Shown in pieces: positions 6,947-59,964 of a stretch of DNA of 64,000 nt (positions are counted from its first letter, which is position 1; every line of letters begins with the position of its first letter). The notes beneath the pieces are model-generated. The model did not search any database, had not been told where the DNA came from, and worked only from the letters and a program-made list of their open reading frames with translations. The stretch lies in NCBI RefSeq assembly GCF_045037415.1, contig NZ_CP173438.1; one strand, 5' to 3'. The translations under genes were made by a program, and so were the position numbers. The DNA comes from Escherichia coli (GTDB lineage: Bacteria; Pseudomonadota; Gammaproteobacteria; Enterobacterales; Enterobacteriaceae).

Positions 6947-7039
6947 TGTGTCAGGCAGCGTTCCGCGATGACGGTGCGTTGCCTTTTCGGCTTCTCAGGC
7001 GAGAAGCCGTTCTTATTACCGGACAATGAAGGGGTAAAG

Positions 7040-41579: not shown

Positions 41580-43658
41580 TTAAATCAATGCCGATTTATC
41601 AATTCCCAGTCGCTTCATTCGTGACAGCAGAGTCGTGCGTTTCAGCCCCAGACGTTGCGCAGCGCCTTTAGGCCCGGCAACCACGCCGTTTGTTTCTTTC
41701 AGCACGCGAACAATCAACTGATATTCATCTTCGCCCTCCTGGGCGACAACCGTTGCGGCAGGCGGCGTTTCAGGTTCTGGTAAAGCAATATCTGGCAATG
41801 ACAGCTGCAGCACGTTGCCGCGTGTTAGCAATACCGCGCGCTCGATGACGTTTTCCAGCTCACGCACGTTGCCCGGCCATTCCATGTTGCTCAGGATGCG
41901 CAGCGTCTCGGCAGGAATGCTGTCGATATTGCGCCCCAGACGACGGGCAATTTTGAAGGTAAAGGCTTTCGCCAGCAGCGGAATATCTTCCGGACGCTCG
42001 CGTAGTGGCGGCAGGTGGATCGGGAATACGTTCAGGCGGTAATAGAGATCGCTACGGAACTCTCGGTCGGCGACCATTTTTTTCAGATCGCGGTTAGTCG
42101 CGGCAATTAAACGTACGTCCGTCTGAATGATTTTGTTGCTGCCGAGACGTTCAAACTCCTGTTCCTGTAATACACGCAGCAACTTCGGCTGTAACTCCAG
42201 CGGCATATCGCCCACTTCATCGAGGAATAGTGAGCTTTTATCCGCCAGTTCAAAACGACCAATGCGCTGAGCGCTGGCACCGGTAAAAGCCCCGCGCTCA
42301 TGACCAAATAGATCGCTTTCCAGCAATCCGGCAGGCATCGCCGCGCAGTTCATTTTGACCATGCGGCGATTATTACGCCCACTGAGATTATGGATCGCGC
42401 GGGCAATCAGCTCTTTACCTGTACCAGTTTCACCGAGGATCAGAACGGTACTGTCACTTTGCGCCACCATTTCAACTTGTTTAAGTACGCTGTACATGGC
42501 TTCGCTGCGGCCAATAATCTCGCCAAATTCACTATCAACATTGTTGAGCTGCTCGGTCAGGGCGAGGTTTTCATCAACCAGCCGTTCTTTCAGACGATGA
42601 ATTTCCTGATAGGCGAGGGCGTTATCGACAGCGATTGCCACACGTTCGGCAATCTGGCGCAGTAAATTCAGATTGGTAGTGGTAAAGACTTTCTCTTCGC
42701 ATTGCGCCAGTTTCAGTACGCCCAGCATGGTGTCGCCAGACATCAGCGGTAACAGGCACAAGGTTTGAATCTGATTGCCCCAGGTGTTGAACAACATGCG
42801 TTCATAGGGGGCTAAATCGTCCCGCTCGTGGAGATTAATCAACAGCATCTCTTTACTTTTGAAGACGCGTTCGGTGAGGGTTCCGGCTTCATCGACTTCG
42901 CTCTGTTCGTGAGCGGGATGCTGTTTATCAAGATAGTGAGTGGAGTAGATGTTGAGTTTGTTCTTACGGTGGCTGCGTAAGACGATGCTGATATCGTCAA
43001 TGTCGAAGTAGTAGTGGATTTCTTTGGCGACTTCGCTGACCAGTTCGTCCATATCCAGGCGGGAAAGCACCGCGTTAGTGATGGCGACCAGGATGCGGAA
43101 GTTATCGCGTTCCCGGCATAACAACTCATAGTCGACATTGTTAACGACGCGGCTCTGGATTTGTTCGGTGACGACAGAAACGATCTGCGTAAATGTTTGC
43201 AGACGATTGAACTCTTTTTCGCTCCAGGGGCGATCGTCATAACGAATAAATTCACAGCCACCAAAAATATGCCCTTCCGCCGCCAGTGGCATCAGGCAAT
43301 AGTGACCAAATTTGGGGTATAGCCCACCTGTGGCCAGCTGCGGCCAGGTTTCACAAAATTCTTCGTAACTGCAATGCAGCGTATCAGGGCGCGACAAAAT
43401 GCTGCGTACCGGACCGTGTGCCAGAACAGTTTCGTCTTCATATTTAATGGGGGTGTCTTTTTCACGCGATGCGTAATAAGACGCACGTTGAGTCTGCGCT
43501 TGCCACAACACAATCGCCGCGTTGTCGGCGAGCGCAGAACGCTTTACCAGTTGCGAAAGAGCCTCACACAGCGAGGCCAGATCGGGCTGCTGCAATAGTG
43601 TCCGAGTGATGTCGAACAACCCTTGCTGTCCGAGATCACTCATCGGTGTATATGACAT
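41580..43658 (-). CDS. fhlA: formate hydrogenlyase transcriptional activator (sigma-54 dependent)
   Basis: 692 aa from the ATG at 43658; GAF domains; AAA+ sigma-54 interaction domain ([14 protein letters not shown]); C-terminal HTH. Confidence 0.95.
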   Translation of the reverse strand: MSYTPMSDLGQQGLFDITRTLLQQPDLASLCEALSQLVKRSALADNAAIVLWQAQTQRASYYASREKDTPIKYEDETVLAHGPVRSILSRPDTLHCSYEEFCETWPQLATGGLYPKFGHYCLMPLAAEGHIFGGCEFIRYDDRPWSEKEFNRLQTFTQIVSVVTEQIQSRVVNNVDYELLCRERDNFRILVAITNAVLSRLDMDELVSEVAKEIHYYFDIDDISIVLRSHRKNKLNIYSTHYLDKQHPAHEQSEVDEAGTLTERVFKSKEMLLINLHERDDLAPYERMLFNTWGNQIQTLCLLPLMSGDTMLGVLKLAQCEEKVFTTTNLNLLRQIAERVAIAVDNALAYQEIHRLKERLVDENLALTEQLNNVDSEFGEIIGRSEAMYSVLKQVEMVAQSDSTVLILGETGTGKELIARAIHNLSGRNNRRMVKMNCAAMPAGLLESDLFGHERGAFTGASAQRIGRFELADKSSLFLDEVGDMPLELQPKLLRVLQEQEFERLGSNKIIQTDVRLIAATNRDLKKMVADREFRSDLYYRLNVFPIHLPPLRERPEDIPLLAKAFTFKIARRLGRNIDSIPAETLRILSNMEWPGNVRELENVIERAVLLTRGNVLQLSLPDIALPEPETPPAATVVAQEGEDEYQLIVRVLKETNGVVAGPKGAAQRLGLKRTTLLSRMKRLGIDKSALI

Positions 43659-43731
43659 TTTGTTCTTCCAGGAAAGCACCGCAAAGCGGTGCAAAAGGTC
43701 ATTGACTAACTATAGGAGATTTAGAATTTTA

Positions 43732-47349: not shown

Positions 47350-47380
47350 ATCGCCTCCCATTAACTATTGCCAGCTACAA

Positions 47381-47396
47381 GCAATAATTGCGCCAG
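47381..47396 (-). promoter_or_regulatory. sigma-54 promoter for hypA (-24 TGGCGC / -12 TTGCT)
   Basis: Reverse complement reads CTGGCGCAATTATTGCT with GG and GC at the canonical spacing. Confidence 0.5.
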
Positions 47397-47421: not shown

Positions 47422-47460
47422 TGTCGATGATGTCGAAATGACACGTCGACACGGCGACGA
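47422..47460. promoter_or_regulatory. candidate FhlA upstream activating region shared by hyp and hyc promoters
   Basis: Cluster of TGTCGA / TCGACA hexamers (TGTCGATGATGTCGAAATGACACGTCGACA) between the two divergent sigma-54 promoters. Confidence 0.35.
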
Positions 47461-47508
47461 AATTCATCTTTAGCTTAGAAATCGCTTTAATAACAATGAA
47501 TTAAAAGT

Positions 47509-47524
47509 TGGCACAGAAAATGCT
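47509..47524 (+). promoter_or_regulatory. sigma-54 promoter for hycA operon (-24 TGGCAC / -12 ATGCT)
   Basis: TGGCACAGAAAATGCT with GG/GC at canonical spacing, about 40 nt upstream of the hycA ATG. Confidence 0.5.
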
Positions 47525-47560
47525 TAAAGCTGGCATCTCTGTTAAACGGGTAACCTGACA

Positions 47561-48022: not shown

Positions 48023-48146
48023 GCTGAGGCTTTGCCCGTTTTGCAGGCGTTACGCCTGTTTGGGGATGGGCGTGTCGATGAGTGTCGAAAATGACATTTC
48101 ATCGGCATGTTTTCGTCAAAAATGACAATCACCTGAGGAATGCCTG

Positions 48147-51524: not shown

Positions 51525-53234
51525 ATGTCTGAAGAAAAATTAGGTCAACATTATCTCGCCGCGCTGAATGAGGCATTTCCTGGCGTCGTGCTGGACCACG
51601 CCTGGCAGACCAAAGATCAGCTGACCGTGACCGTAAAGGTGAACTACCTGCCGGAAGTGGTGGAGTTTCTCTACTACAAGCAGGGTGGCTGGCTGTCGGT
51701 GCTGTTTGGTAACGACGAACGCAAACTGAATGGTCATTACGCCGTTTATTACGTGCTGTCGATGGAGAAGGGCACCAAGTGTTGGGTAACGGTTCGCGTT
51801 GAAGTTGACGCCAACAAACCGGAGTATCCTTCCGTGACGCCGCGCGTTCCGGCGGCGGTGTGGGGCGAGCGTGAAGTGCGCGATATGTACGGTTTGATTC
51901 CGGTTGGTCTGCCGGATGAACGCCGTCTGGTGCTGCCGGATGACTGGCCGGATGAACTTTATCCTCTGCGTAAAGACAGCATGGATTATCGTCAGCGTCC
52001 GGCACCGACTACCGATGCTGAAACCTACGAGTTCATCAACGAACTGGGCGACAAGAAAAACAACGTCGTGCCGATTGGTCCACTGCACGTCACTTCTGAC
52101 GAACCGGGTCACTTCCGTCTGTTCGTCGATGGTGAAAACATTATCGACGCCGACTACCGCCTGTTCTACGTCCATCGCGGCATGGAAAAACTGGCGGAAA
52201 CCCGTATGGGTTACAACGAAGTGACCTTCCTCTCTGACCGTGTGTGCGGGATCTGCGGCTTTGCTCACAGCACCGCCTATACCACGTCGGTGGAAAACGC
52301 GATGGGTATTCAGGTGCCAGAACGCGCGCAGATGATCCGCGCCATTCTGCTGGAGGTAGAACGCCTGCACTCGCATCTGCTCAACCTCGGCCTGGCCTGT
52401 CACTTTACCGGCTTTGACTCCGGCTTTATGCAGTTCTTCCGCGTGCGTGAAACCTCCATGAAAATGGCAGAGATCCTTACCGGTGCGCGTAAAACCTACG
52501 GCCTGAACCTGATCGGCGGGATTCGTCGCGATCTGCTGAAAGACGACATGATTCAGACCCGCCAGCTGGCGCAACAGATGCGTCGTGAAGTGCAGGAGCT
52601 GGTGGATGTGCTGCTGAGCACACCGAACATGGAACAGCGCACCGTCGGCATTGGTCGTCTGGACCCGGAAATTGCCCGCGATTTCAGTAACGTTGGCCCG
52701 ATGGTCCGCGCCAGCGGACACGCTCGCGATACCCGCGCCGATCACCCGTTTGTTGGTTATGGCCTGCTGCCAATGGAAGTCCACAGCGAGCAGGGCTGCG
52801 ACGTTATTTCCCGTCTGAAAGTGCGTATCAACGAAGTCTATACCGCGCTGAATATGATCGATTACGGTCTGGATAACCTGCCGGGCGGCCCGCTGATGGT
52901 GGAAGGCTTTACCTACATTCCGCACCGTTTCGCGCTGGGCTTTGCCGAAGCGCCGCGCGGCGACGATATCCACTGGAGCATGACCGGCGACAACCAGAAG
53001 CTGTACCGCTGGCGCTGCCGTGCCGCGACCTACGCGAACTGGCCGACCCTGCGCTACATGCTGCGTGGCAATACCGTTTCCGATGCGCCGCTGATTATCG
53101 GTAGCCTGGACCCTTGCTACTCCTGTACCGACCGCATGACCGTGGTCGATGTACGTAAGAAGAAGAGCAAAGTGGTGCCGTACAAAGAACTCGAGCGCTA
53201 CAGCATTGAGCGTAAAAACTCGCCGCTGAAATAA
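51525..53234 (+). CDS. hycE: hydrogenase 3 [NiFe] large subunit
   Basis: 569 aa from the ATG at 51525; RVCGICG N-terminal and DPCYSCTDR C-terminal Ni-Fe ligand motifs. Confidence 0.95.
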   Translation: MSEEKLGQHYLAALNEAFPGVVLDHAWQTKDQLTVTVKVNYLPEVVEFLYYKQGGWLSVLFGNDERKLNGHYAVYYVLSMEKGTKCWVTVRVEVDANKPEYPSVTPRVPAAVWGEREVRDMYGLIPVGLPDERRLVLPDDWPDELYPLRKDSMDYRQRPAPTTDAETYEFINELGDKKNNVVPIGPLHVTSDEPGHFRLFVDGENIIDADYRLFYVHRGMEKLAETRMGYNEVTFLSDRVCGICGFAHSTAYTTSVENAMGIQVPERAQMIRAILLEVERLHSHLLNLGLACHFTGFDSGFMQFFRVRETSMKMAEILTGARKTYGLNLIGGIRRDLLKDDMIQTRQLAQQMRREVQELVDVLLSTPNMEQRTVGIGRLDPEIARDFSNVGPMVRASGHARDTRADHPFVGYGLLPMEVHSEQGCDVISRLKVRINEVYTALNMIDYGLDNLPGGPLMVEGFTYIPHRFALGFAEAPRGDDIHWSMTGDNQKLYRWRCRAATYANWPTLRYMLRGNTVSDAPLIIGSLDPCYSCTDRMTVVDVRKKKSKVVPYKELERYSIERKNSPLK

Positions 53235-55420: not shown

Positions 55421-55655
55421 TTCTTCATTAGGGAATTCAGGGAATTGAACATCAAAACAGGGATGTGCGCTTTTTTATTGAGCTTAGTGCTGCCTGCACA
55501 GGCCACCAGCTTTACCGAATATCTGCCAATGAGTGACAGCGAATACGCGCAAAAGCGGGCGCTGAAACCTCTCCTGACCATGCCTTATGATGCCGAGCAA
55601 ACCTGGCATTTTAGAAAAGTGGGCGTCTGACACGTTACTACAGAGAGAACAAAGA

Positions 55656-56075
55656 ATGACTGCTAATGCTGCACGCGCTGTTAAAGCAACAAGAGAACTG
55701 GTCAATGCAGTCCCCTTTCTGGGAGGCAGTGACTCAGAAGATGATTACCGTGAAGCACTGGAACTGGTCGAATATTTGATTGAAGAAGATGATACTAATC
55801 CACTTATCGACTTTCTGGCGAGCCGCATTGCAGAATATGAAAACAATAACGAAAAGTTTGCAGAGTTCGACAAAGCCGTTGCAGCAATGCCTGTTGGTGT
55901 GGCGTTACTTCGCACGCTGATTGATCAACATAATCTGACCTATGCAGATTTGAAGAACGAAATCGGCTCTAAATCCCTGGTCAGCCAGATTTTATCTGGA
56001 CAACGTTCCCTGACGATATCCCACATTAAGGCACTTTCAGCCCGATTTGGCGTTAAGCCGGAATGGTTTCTTTGA
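55656..56075 (+). CDS. XRE-family transcriptional regulator with C-terminal helix-turn-helix and acidic N-terminal domain (function unknown)
   Basis: 139 aa from the ATG at 55656 (longer ORF from 55587 lacks an RBS); C-terminal HTH LTYADLKNEIGSKSLVSQILSGQRSLTISHIKALSARFGV; acidic N-terminal half (SDSEDDYREALELVEYLIEEDD). Confidence 0.6.
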   Translation: MTANAARAVKATRELVNAVPFLGGSDSEDDYREALELVEYLIEEDDTNPLIDFLASRIAEYENNNEKFAEFDKAVAAMPVGVALLRTLIDQHNLTYADLKNEIGSKSLVSQILSGQRSLTISHIKALSARFGVKPEWFL

Positions 56076-56125
56076 CTGATGGCAGACGCTAAATCGCCTG
56101 ATGCGCTACGCCTATCGGGCTTTGA

Positions 56126-56157
56126 AAGGGCGCAGATTCTTAATTTTGCGCGCCCTT
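56126..56157. terminator. hairpin between convergent XRE gene and DUF4259-like gene
   Basis: Stem AAGGGCGC / GCGCCCTT with 16-nt loop, followed by GTTTGTCATT on the plus strand. Confidence 0.4.
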
Positions 56158-56166
56158 GTTTGTCAT

Positions 56167-56604
56167 TCAGGCTGTTGTCTTTACTACTCTTAATTTATCA
56201 GTAAGCTCAATCAGATATGCTTTTGCTTTTTCGCGTGCTCGCCCCTCGAAAAGCATTATCCACTCATGTGTGTCGTCGATTGTTTGTAAACGGCCCTGGA
56301 GTTTTTTGCTGAAAGTCGACGTGAGCTGATAACCGTCGAGTTGATCAATTTGTTTACTCGATGTGATTTTTTTCCCGGCTGCTTTTTGAATGATAAGTTC
56401 AACGAAACCGATAACATTATTATCGTAATTATCGTAGAGAAATTCTTCATCTCCCTGAAATCCGAACAAATCTTCATGCTGGCTTAAGCGTTGAACAATT
56501 GACTCGGCATCAAAGGTCGAATCATCTTGCAGTTGTTCCTCTACCCAATTAATCAAATCCAGCCCTTCGTCGCTTTCGAGAGCCTCCATTCCCCATGAAC
56601 CCAT
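56167..56604 (-). CDS. DUF4259-like hypothetical protein
   Basis: 145-aa ORF starting MGSWGMEALESDEGLDLINW (the MGxWG...D..LD N-terminus typical of DUF4259, assigned from memory); RBS AGGTAAGGA upstream. Confidence 0.6.
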   Translation of the reverse strand: MGSWGMEALESDEGLDLINWVEEQLQDDSTFDAESIVQRLSQHEDLFGFQGDEEFLYDNYDNNVIGFVELIIQKAAGKKITSSKQIDQLDGYQLTSTFSKKLQGRLQTIDDTHEWIMLFEGRAREKAKAYLIELTDKLRVVKTTA

Positions 56605-56896
56605 TTTGTATCCTTACCTGTTATTTCAGTCGAAATAGTATTATTCAATAAAGGTTCATCGCTAATCTGCGATGAACCTCAAAATACAATCATATGGATA
56701 GCTGACAAAGTGGTCGTTGTTCACGCCGTATCCGGCACGGTTGCTTCCCTTAAATCCTCCCCGTTACTGGCAATTACTTTTTTATACCACCAGAACGACT
56801 TGTCGGAAAAAAGTACCCAGATGTGGACTGGCAACGATAAAATATTCATTAGAAAACGGATTCTCTCTGCCTTACTACGATAAATACTGTCATCAC

Positions 56897-56924
56897 ATGT
56901 CATCGACACTAGTGTCGATGACAT
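56897..56924. promoter_or_regulatory. perfect 28-bp palindrome ATGTCATCGACACTAGTGTCGATGACAT; candidate FhlA-type activator site for hydN-hypF
   Basis: All 14 base pairs of the dyad verified position by position; contains the TCGACA / TGTCGA hexamers also clustered in the hyp-hyc control region; about 110 bp upstream of the hydN ATG. Confidence 0.4.
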
Positions 56925-57031
56925 CGTTTTTCCTGTAGTACAGAATTTAATTTCCTTAAATAACAGTAAATTAAAAACTGGCATGATTTGTGAATGTATC
57001 GGCGCATTAACTGTTATTGCTGGAGAATTTG

Positions 57032-57559
57032 ATGAACCGTTTCATCATTGCTGACGCGAGTAAATGTATTGGTTGCCGTACCTGTGAAGTGGCGTGCGTG
57101 GTTTCTCATCAGGAAAATCAGGACTGTGCATCGCTGACCCCGGAAACATTTTTACCGCGAATCCATGTCATTAAAGGTGTGAACATTTCCACGGCGACAG
57201 TCTGCCGTCAGTGTGAAGATGCACCGTGCGCTAACGTCTGCCCGAATGGTGCTATCAGCCGTGATAAAGGGTTTGTTCATGTCATGCAGGAACGTTGTAT
57301 TGGTTGCAAAACCTGCGTTGTGGCTTGCCCATATGGTGCGATGGAAGTGGTGGTGCGTCCGGTGATTCGCAACAGCGGCGCAGGGCTGAATGTACGGGCT
57401 GACAAAGCCGAAGCCAATAAATGCGACCTGTGCAACCATCGTGAAGACGGCCCGGCGTGTATGGCGGCTTGCCCGACCCATGCGCTGATTTGTGTCGATC
57501 GTAATAAACTTGAACAACTGAGCGCAGAAAAACGCCGCCGCACGGCGCTGATGTTCTAA
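57032..57559 (+). CDS. hydN: electron transport protein HydN (4Fe-4S ferredoxin-type)
   Basis: 175 aa from the ATG at 57032; four CxxCxxCxxxCP-type clusters. Confidence 0.95.
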
Positions 57560-57711: not shown

Positions 57712-59964
57712 ATGGCAAAAAACACATCTTGCGGTGTCCAACTGCGTATTCGTGGCAAAGTGCAGGGCGTCGGTTTTCGTCCGTTTGTCTGGCAACTGGC
57801 ACAGCAATTAAATCTTCACGGCGATGTCTGTAATGACGGCGATGGCGTAGAAGTCCGGCTGCTGGAAGAGCCGGAAACCTTTCTTGTTCAATTGCATCAG
57901 CATTGTCCGCCGCTGGCGCGTATTGATAGCGTCGAGCGTGAGCCGTTTATCTGGTCACAACTGCCCACCGAGTTCACTATCCGCCAGAGCACAGGCGGCG
58001 CTATGAATACGCAAATAGTTCCCGATGCCGCGACTTGCCCTGCTTGCCTTGCCGAAATGAATACCCCGGGCGAGCGGCGTTATCGTTATCCGTTTATCAA
58101 CTGTACCCACTGTGGCCCGCGTTTCACCATTATTCGCGCCATGCCTTACGACCGCCCGTTTACCGTGATGGCGGCGTTTCCGCTGTGTCCGGCTTGTGAC
58201 AAAGAGTACTGTGACCCGCTCGATCGTCGCTTCCACGCCCAGCCGGTGGCCTGCCCGGAGTGTGGCCCCCATCTTGAATGGGTAAGTCATGGTGAACATG
58301 CAGAACAAGAGGCGGCATTACAGGCAGCTATCGCACAGTTAAAAATGGGCAACATTGTCGCCATCAAAGGGATTGGCGGATTTCATCTTGCCTGCGATGC
58401 ACGTAACAGTAACGCGGTGGCGACACTTCGGGCGCGCAAACATCGCCCGGCGAAACCGCTGGCGGTCATGTTGCCAGTGGCTGACGGTTTACCAGACGCT
58501 GCGCGCCAGTTGCTTACCACGCCCGCCGCGCCGATTGTGCTGGTGGATAAAAAATATGTACCTGAGCTTTGTGATGATATCGCCCCTGGCCTTAACGAAG
58601 TCGGGGTAATGTTGCCTGCGAACCCGCTCCAGCATTTGCTGTTACAGGAACTGCAATGCCCGCTGGTGATGACCTCCGGCAACCTGAGCGGTAAACCACC
58701 GGCTATCAGCAACGAACAGGCGCTGGCGGATTTGCAGGGCATTGCCGACGGATTCTTGATACATAACCGCGACATCGTGCAGCGGATGGATGATTCGGTG
58801 GTGCGCGAAAGCGGCGAAATGCTGCGCCGTTCGCGGGGGTATGTGCCGGATGCGCTGGCTTTGCCTCCGGGCTTTAAAAATGTTCCGCCTGTGCTGTGTC
58901 TCGGCGCGGATCTGAAAAATACCTTCTGCCTGGTGCGCGGCGAACAAGCGGTGTTGAGTCAGCATCTGGGCGATTTAAGTGACGATGGCATCCAGATGCA
59001 GTGGCGCGAAGCGTTACGCCTGATGCAAAACATCTACGATTTCACTCCGCAATACGTTGTGCATGACGCGCATCCGGGCTATGTCTCCAGCCAGTGGGCG
59101 CGCGAAATGAATCTGCCGACGCAAACGGTGCTGCATCATCATGCTCACGCAGCGGCATGTCTGGCAGAACATCACTGGCCGCTGGATGGCGGAGATGTCA
59201 TTGCGTTGACACTCGACGGTATTGGTATGGGGGAGAACGGCGCTTTGTGGGGGGGAGAGTGCCTGCGGGTGAACTATCGTGAATGCGAGCACCTGGGCGG
59301 CTTGCCTGCAGTGGCGCTTGCTGGTGGCGATCTTGCCGCAAAGCAGCCGTGGCGAAACCTGCTGACGCAGTGCTTGCGTTTTGTGCCGGAGTGGCAGAGT
59401 TATCCCGAAACGGTAAGTGTGCAACAGCAAAACTGGAGCGTGCTGGCGCGGGCCATTGAGCGTGGAATCAATGCACCACTGGCGTCATCGTGTGGGCGGT
59501 TGTTCGATGCCGTAGCGGCGGCGCTGGGCTGTGCGCCAGCCACGTTAAGTTATGAAGGTGAAGCGGCTTGTGCTCTGGAGGCGCTGGCGACTTCGTGCCA
59601 CGGCGTGACGCATCCGGTGACGATGCCGCTGGTGGATAATCAACTGGATCTCGCCACCTTCTGGCAGCAGTGGCTGAACTGGCAGGCTCCGGTTAATCAA
59701 CGTGCGTGGGCGTTTCATGATGCGCTGGCGCAGGGGGGGGCCGCGTTGATGCGTGAGCAGGCCACGATGCGTGGTATCACTACGCTGGTATTTAGCGGCG
59801 GGGTTATTCATAACCGTTTGCTGCGTGCACGTCTGGCGCATTATCTCGCTGATTTCACATTGCTCTTTCCACAGAGTTTACCTGCGGGCGATGGCGGGTT
59901 GTCTCTGGGGCAGGGGGTTATTGCTGCGGCGCGTTGGTTAGCGGGTGAAGTCCAGAACGGATAA
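57712..59964 (+). CDS. hypF: carbamoyltransferase HypF (hydrogenase maturation)
   Basis: 750 aa from the ATG at 57712; acylphosphatase domain, two CxxC-x18-CxxC zinc fingers, YrdC and Kae1-like domains. Confidence 0.95.

Follow-up and report, generated by a model that had tools for sequence, protein, structure and literature searches.

The perfect 28-bp palindrome upstream of hydN is very probably an upstream activating sequence (enhancer) for FhlA, which, judging from the sequence, would serve the sigma-54 promoter of the hydN-hypF operon. The window, i.e. the whole stretch of 64,000 nucleotides of Escherichia coli DNA that was analysed, also carries the gene of this activator and the FhlA-type enhancers of the hyc and hyp genes (Table 1). 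It is already known that hydN-hypF belongs to the FhlA/formate/sigma-54 regulon, and its promoter has been mapped; the palindrome is most likely an ordinary part of this regulon. The promoter and its dependence on FhlA and formate are taken from the literature, and the sequence, the position relative to the promoter, the conservation and the common motifs are results of the present analysis.

The palindrome and the hydN promoter

The palindrome is real and non-random. It was found exactly at the predicted position, as the dyad ATGTCATCGACACTAGTGTCGATGACAT whose halves, ATGTCATCGACACT and AGTGTCGATGACAT, abut without a spacer. Among the close inverted repeats of at least 11 nt in the 64-kb window it is the only one with 100% complementarity, and shuffled versions of the window yielded no match to the 28-bp dyad with 3 mismatches tolerated. 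The predicted direct repeat TGTCATC precedes it, with copies at 56888-56894 and 56898-56904. A repeated or mobile element was ruled out as the identity of the palindrome, which occurs in one copy per genome. An Rfam scan of 56500-57100 returned nothing relevant, with one chance match far below threshold, and no family fits the dyad. Between the palindrome and the IHF-like site lies a second small dyad, CTGTAGTACAG at 56933-56943, which reads CTGCATTACAG in K-12; it is not conserved and is probably a chance occurrence.

Table 1. Coordinates of the palindrome, its parts and the related features (window positions unless a locus is named)
Feature	Position	Strand	Remarks
Perfect 28-bp palindrome	56897-56924	.	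Proposed FhlA upstream activating sequence of hydN-hypF
Conserved 26-bp core of the palindrome	56898-56923		TGTCATCGACA-CTAG-TGTCGATGACA; conservation in 80 species and motifs common to the hyc/hyp, fdhF and hyf enhancers
Central 5-4-5 unit	56904-56917	.	CGACA-CTAG-TGTCG; layout as in the published FhlA matrix, TGWCR-N4-TGWCA
Extra upstream half-site	56888-56897	+	TGTCATCACA; 10 bp before the left arm; moderately conserved
CGTTTTT run 3' of the dyad	56925-56931	+	Dyad and run together score as intrinsic-terminator-like
IHF-like site	56960-56974	+	ATAACAGTAAATTAA (cf. WATCAANNNNTTR); just 5' of the -24 element; predicted from the consensus only
Sigma-54 (-24/-12) promoter of hydN-hypF	56978-56994	+	CTGGCATGATTTGTGAA; identical to ChIP-seq site OS26 (PMC4591121)
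hydN	57032-57559	+	4Fe-4S ferredoxin-like protein; leads the regulated operon
hypF	57712-59964	+	Carbamoyltransferase; second operon gene; RefSeq coordinates transferred from the identical strain SK1144
fhlA	41580-43694	-	Cognate activator; GAF, sigma-54 interaction and HTH_8 domains
Sigma-54 promoter of hypA	47380-47396	-
FhlA-type enhancer IR1, hypA-hycA spacer	47422-47451	.	TGTCGATGATGTCGAAATGACACGTCGACA
Sigma-54 promoter of hycA	47508-47524
FhlA-type enhancer IR2, hycA-hycB spacer	48073-48127	.	Top FhlA matrix matches of the window
CGWCA-N4-TGWCG upstream of fdhF	6955-6968 of the fdhF locus (L083)
CGWCA-N4-TGWCG upstream of hyfA	2440-2453 of the hyfA locus (L084)

The original prediction had seen no convincing sigma-54 promoter between the palindrome and hydN. 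Such a promoter does exist: the sequence CTGGCATGATTTGTGAA is site OS26 of Bonocora et al. (2015), a sigma-54 ChIP-seq site assigned to hydN and marked as previously confirmed (PMC4591121). The ascG-hydN spacer is also among the RpoN gSELEX sites. In Salmonella, the counterpart TGGCACGATTCGTGTATA was bound by the sigma-54 holoenzyme in ChIP-chip experiments, and the hydN operon was 13-fold sigma-54-dependent with FhlA listed as its activator (Samuels paper). The -24 element has its GG at 56980-56981, which puts the estimated transcription start near 57005, ahead of the first position of hydN (57032). Counted from this GG, the dyad centre (56910.5) is 69.5 bp further upstream, at about -95 relative to the estimated start. 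Enhancers of sigma-54 promoters are usually found roughly 70-150 bp upstream (Samuels paper), and the position of the dyad at about -95 is a typical one, inside this range.

In 53 of the 81 hydN loci, a match to WATCAANNNNTTR, resembling an IHF site, starts 19 nt ahead of the GG. Comparison of the hydN region (56950-56996) with the hycA region (47480-47526) revealed a common block, TTAATAACA.T.AATTAAAA..TGGCA, with 29 of 47 positions identical. The hycA promoter is preceded by the same IHF-like block at 47490-47504, at the same distance from the -24 element as in hydN, and IHF is described in the literature as an activator of hyc and hyp. The promoters of hypA and hycA each differ by one base from the published K-12 motif (Bonocora et al. 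2015, PMC4591121). The fhlA gene is intact in the window and lies 13 kb from the palindrome; its reading frame as listed begins with TTG, and translation may in fact start a few codons further in. Expression of hydN-hypF is enhanced by formate-FhlA according to a 2025 review, and the operon has been placed in the formate regulon.

Over the palindrome stretch the window is identical to strain SK1144 and to ST131-type genomes, in which three small genes replace ascBFG between hycI and hydN. This arrangement occurs in 724 of 5426 complete E. coli genomes and also in E. albertii. The strain-specific block (55445-56877) comprises a 61-aa reading frame, an HTH_3/XRE protein and a divergent 145-aa reading frame; the last has no Pfam match at E <= 0.001, and one RefSeq record labels it DUF4259. 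Two terminator-like hairpins are present in the block on the plus strand, one at 56046-56062 at the 3' end of the HTH_3 gene (56075) and the other just downstream at 56130-56151. Homology with ascG-bearing genomes begins at 56878, 19 bp ahead of the palindrome, with CGATAAA, where K-12-type strains have the stop codon of ascG. Therefore, the palindrome belongs to the conserved block on the hydN side and the divergent gene to the strain-specific insert, which lends no support to the suggestion that the element might control the divergent DUF4259-like gene.

The K-12-type allele contains one mismatch, its left arm reading TCGTCA instead of the TCGACA of the window. Of the 5426 E. coli genomes, 4869 carry the one-mismatch allele and 555 the perfect one, ST131 being among the carriers of the latter. 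The window differs from the majority allele by a T-to-A change at 56907 that restores the symmetry, a kind of change expected from quasi-palindrome template switching. The element is thus single-copy and essentially universal in E. coli, and its perfection is a minority, lineage-specific allele. Strains with ascG upstream of hydN had been proposed as a check on conservation, with absence of the palindrome counting against the prediction; these K-12-type genomes retain the element with the single mismatch.

Conservation and motifs shared with known FhlA targets

Alignment of hydN loci from representatives of 80 species of Enterobacteriaceae in more than 15 genera, including Escherichia, Salmonella, Citrobacter, Klebsiella, Raoultella, Enterobacter, Kluyvera, Kosakonia, Lelliottia, Trabulsiella and Cedecea, revealed a near-invariant 26-bp core upstream of hydN, TGTCATCG[T/A]CA-N4-TG[A/T]CGATGACA. 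The arms carry 1.9 bits of information per position and the 4-nt centre 0.86, against 0.35-0.39 in the flanks; the extra upstream half-site stands above these flanks with 0.79 bits per position, and other genera read (C/T)GTCG(T/A)CA there. The element was found in 79-80 of the 80 species. Its upstream neighbour is an ascG-like gene ending 11-32 nt away in 67 of them, and in 12 loci, Salmonella and the window included, the first gene detected upstream is hycI; in the window, the strain-specific insert with the divergent gene separates hycI from hydN. As the core is kept whether ascG, hycI or a divergent gene lies upstream, the element travels with hydN.

Two classes of spacing separate the dyad centre from the GG of the -24 element, one of 58-61 bp in 30 species and the other of 68-71 bp in 50, and no species has 62-67 bp; shared ancestry inflates these counts. 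The step between the classes is about one helical turn, as expected if an enhancer must face its promoter. The only variable position of the arms is the W on both sides, where the changes are one-sided (17 single and 1 double); such changes would fit the tolerance of a binding protein rather than base pairing. Full symmetry is not the feature that would make the palindrome functional; it characterises a minority allele, and among species the symmetric W position is free to vary.

The published FhlA matrix, built from 13 sites, reads TGWCR-AWRA-TGWCA and represents two YGWCR pentamers four bases apart. The motif comparison proposed with the original prediction had a divided outcome: the 5-4-5 layout and the words of the dyad match, whereas the matrix gives the dyad centre 6.1 of 17.6 bits, a score equalled by 303 14-mers in the window. 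The best matrix matches in the window lie in the hycA-hycB spacer (48083 and 48114) and the hypA-hycA spacer (47422). In an incomplete reconstruction of the 13 sites behind the matrix from K-12 sequences, the fdhF site seems to be included with a shift of one base, and a hydN site does not appear to be among them. Taken alone, the matrix neither supports nor excludes the palindrome as a site. The idealised FhlA consensus CATTTCGTACGAAATG has no match within 3 mismatches in the window; since it also misses the hyc/hyp enhancer regions, it does not discriminate and is uninformative.

The pattern YGWCR-N4-YGWCR has 14 matches in the window, compared with 4.8 ± 2.1 expected, and these include IR1, IR2 (twice) and the dyad centre. 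Of 80 hydN loci, 79 contain a single upstream copy of the core CGWCA-N4-TGWCG. A K-12-like genome has exactly one copy in each of two other regions, the 10-kb fdhF locus (CGTCAAAACTGACG, 79.5 bp away from the GG) and the 6-kb hyfA locus (CGACACGGGTGTCG, 103.5 bp away from the GG); both copies are situated upstream of the sigma-54 promoter and score 8.2 and 4.6 bits, respectively, with the FhlA matrix. The fdhF and hyf operons are reported FhlA targets. Elsewhere in the window the core is found only as CGTCACTTCTGACG at 52088-52101, within the hyc coding region; this match is probably due to chance, the total for the window being 2 against 0.29 expected.

Longer words are shared as well. The 9-mer TCATCGACA is present in both arms of the dyad, in IR1 and in IR2, and TCATCGWCA has 8 copies in the window against 1.1 expected, 4 of the 8 lying in the three FhlA-type regions. 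The hexamers TGTCGA/TCGACA do recur in the hypA-hycA spacer as originally noted, at 47422, 47431 and 47446, flanked by the sigma-54 promoters of hypA and hycA. With 55 copies in the window versus 28.7 expected, the hexamer alone is weak evidence and the longer common words are stronger. Alignments from 7 genera indicate that TGWCGA hexamers 9-10 bp apart are the conserved parts of IR1 and IR2. A full-text literature search with the arm sequences returned unrelated papers only, with no FhlA or hydN paper among them.

Alternative explanations

The palindrome might instead act mainly as an RNA hairpin, either an intrinsic terminator or a 3'-end stabiliser of the upstream ascG, shielding hydN from read-through; we consider this quite unlikely, and in the ascG-less strain of the window such a hairpin would be a leftover. 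A terminator scan of the plus strand does report a 12-bp stem with a 4-nt loop and the tail CGTTTTTCCT, and the RNA folds with -17.6 kcal/mol (z = -4.8), compared with -13.6 for the K-12 allele. The proximity of the ascG-like gene end in most species (67 of 80, at 11-32 nt) agrees with a hairpin, and so does the covariation of the pairs flanking the core, which extend the dyad. In loci L003-L082 the positions corresponding to 56896-56897 covary with those corresponding to 56924-56925, the Watson-Crick fraction being 0.68 against 0.36 expected for the pair -1/+1 and 0.45 against 0.29 for -2/+2, and off-register pairs match the expectation. On a nearest-neighbour tree the flank pairs underwent 8 compensatory double changes versus 1 in mis-registered controls. 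However, a T-run follows the dyad in just 19 of 80 species, and the stem is invariant as a sequence, with no compensated drift. Core pairs either never vary or break: the sole internal pair that varies, that of the W positions, is disrupted (T opposite T) in 24 of 80 species, among them K-12, and in 22 of the 74 distinct sequences. In addition, the element is kept where no co-directional gene is nearby, as in E. albertii and in the window, whose upstream neighbour is divergent and whose nearest co-directional reading frame ends at 56075; it is also kept in Salmonella, where hycI ends 61-62 nt upstream. A terminator alone leaves unexplained both the motifs common to fdhF, hyf and hyc/hyp and the two classes of promoter spacing. 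Termination as the sole role is much less likely than as an extra one, and even an extra terminator or hairpin role alongside the enhancer is proposed only tentatively. One form of it, which we think doubtful, is a dual element: as double-stranded DNA it would be the FhlA enhancer, and its copy in RNA transcribed from upstream would fold into a hairpin, terminating or stabilising the transcript of ascG (or hyc) and keeping hydN insulated. If this were true, selection on the hairpin or correction by template switching would explain the covarying flank pairs together with the perfect ST131-type allele. The flank covariation could reflect either such a secondary hairpin role or template-switch homogenisation of the quasi-palindrome.

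The operator of another symmetric regulator, such as AscG or an unknown repressor acting on hydN or on the divergent 145-aa gene, is a very unlikely identity for the element. Perfect dyads are typical of the operators of dimeric repressors, ascG adjoins the palindrome in most species, and a pair of sigma-70-like hexamers overlaps the right arm; such hexamer matches are not above chance, however, with 2 found and 2.9 expected. Operators of the LacI/GalR family have a central CG and the pattern TGNAANCGNTTNCA, and the palindrome has neither, its centre being CTAG and variable. The element is conserved without an adjacent ascG in the window, E. albertii and Salmonella, the homology of the strain-specific insert, to which the divergent gene belongs, stops 19 bp short of the dyad, and the words of the motif are those of known FhlA targets. 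An AscG operator and control of the divergent gene were both rejected, on the conservation without ascG and on the homology boundary. It is extremely improbable that the dyad symmetry, in particular that of the perfect allele, arose from a mutational process (quasi-palindrome template switching) and has no function of its own. The window allele is the majority K-12 allele plus the one T-to-A change that makes the dyad perfect, and the flanking positions tend to prolong the symmetry. Yet template switching cannot explain 22 positions that are near-invariant across genera with fully diverged flanks, nor the constant placement relative to the promoter; the process could explain why the dyad is perfect, but not why the element exists. 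Of the idea that the palindrome is a regulator's binding site, the part concerning FhlA and hydN-hypF is thus backed by position, common motifs and deep conservation, and the part concerning the divergent gene found no support.

Proposed mode of activation and comparison with known enhancers

Based on these comparisons, we propose the following course of activation for the FhlA enhancer of hydN-hypF. FhlA activated by formate would bind the array of YGWCR pentamers, TGTCA-T-CGACA-CTAG-TGTCG-A-TGACA, whose centre lies about 95 bp upstream of the transcription start, and may also bind the extra half-site 10 bp upstream. The IHF-like site beside the -24 element would help the DNA to bend, so that FhlA could contact the sigma-54 RNA polymerase already bound at CTGGCATGATTTGTGAA and open the promoter using ATP. 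The contact of FhlA with the palindrome DNA, the number of subunits bound and the role of IHF are inferred. In a paper citing Leonhartsberger (2000), FhlA is described as a tetramer binding one side of the DNA. A tetramer on one side fits the four pentamers plus the upstream half-site, with their repeat of about 10 bp.

This changes little in the picture of the regulon, and the results are mostly by-products. They comprise the position and anatomy of the hydN enhancer, with four YGWCR pentamers and one upstream half-site; the simple core CGWCA-N4-TGWCG common to hydN, fdhF and hyf, which the 13-site matrix scores poorly; and evidence that full symmetry of the palindrome marks no more than a lineage-specific allele. 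Further small additions are the two classes of promoter spacing and the covariation in the flanks. Better models of FhlA sites and the design of formate-responsive promoters are possible uses.

Rho-independent terminators resemble the element in having, in Escherichia, a plus-strand stem-loop followed by a T-run, here 15 nt past the ascG stop codon in K-12-type strains. It differs from them in that G-C pairs make up only 5 of the 12 pairs of its stem, most species lack the T-run, and the sequence is conserved rather than the structure alone. Enhancers of other sigma-54 activators also resemble it. The binding sites of NorR (three GT-N7-AC repeats), GlrR (TGTC-N10-GACA) and NtrC (TGCACC-N4-TGGTGCA) are likewise inverted repeats located about 70-150 bp upstream of a -24/-12 promoter and served by an oligomerising AAA+ activator, often with IHF in between. 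Sequence and spacing are different in hydN, which has TGTC and GACA tetramers but lacks the 10-bp interval that separates them in GlrR sites. The FhlA enhancers of hyc/hyp, fdhF and hyf are likewise among the closest known systems. As in hydN, each precedes a sigma-54 promoter belonging to the formate regulon and contains YGWCR pentamers and TGWCGA hexamers 9-10 bp apart; the hyc/hyp sites share TCATCGACA, fdhF and hyf share CGWCA-N4-TGWCG, and hycA shares the IHF-like block beside the -24 element. Unlike the direct or mixed repeats of the other FhlA enhancers, the half-sites of hydN are joined in a single long, symmetric dyad in which four pentamers are spaced 1-4-1. The hydN arms read CATCG where the hyc/hyp sites read CATTT(T)CG, and hydN scores low on the published matrix. 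In addition, the -12 element of E. coli hydN is GTGA rather than TTGC.
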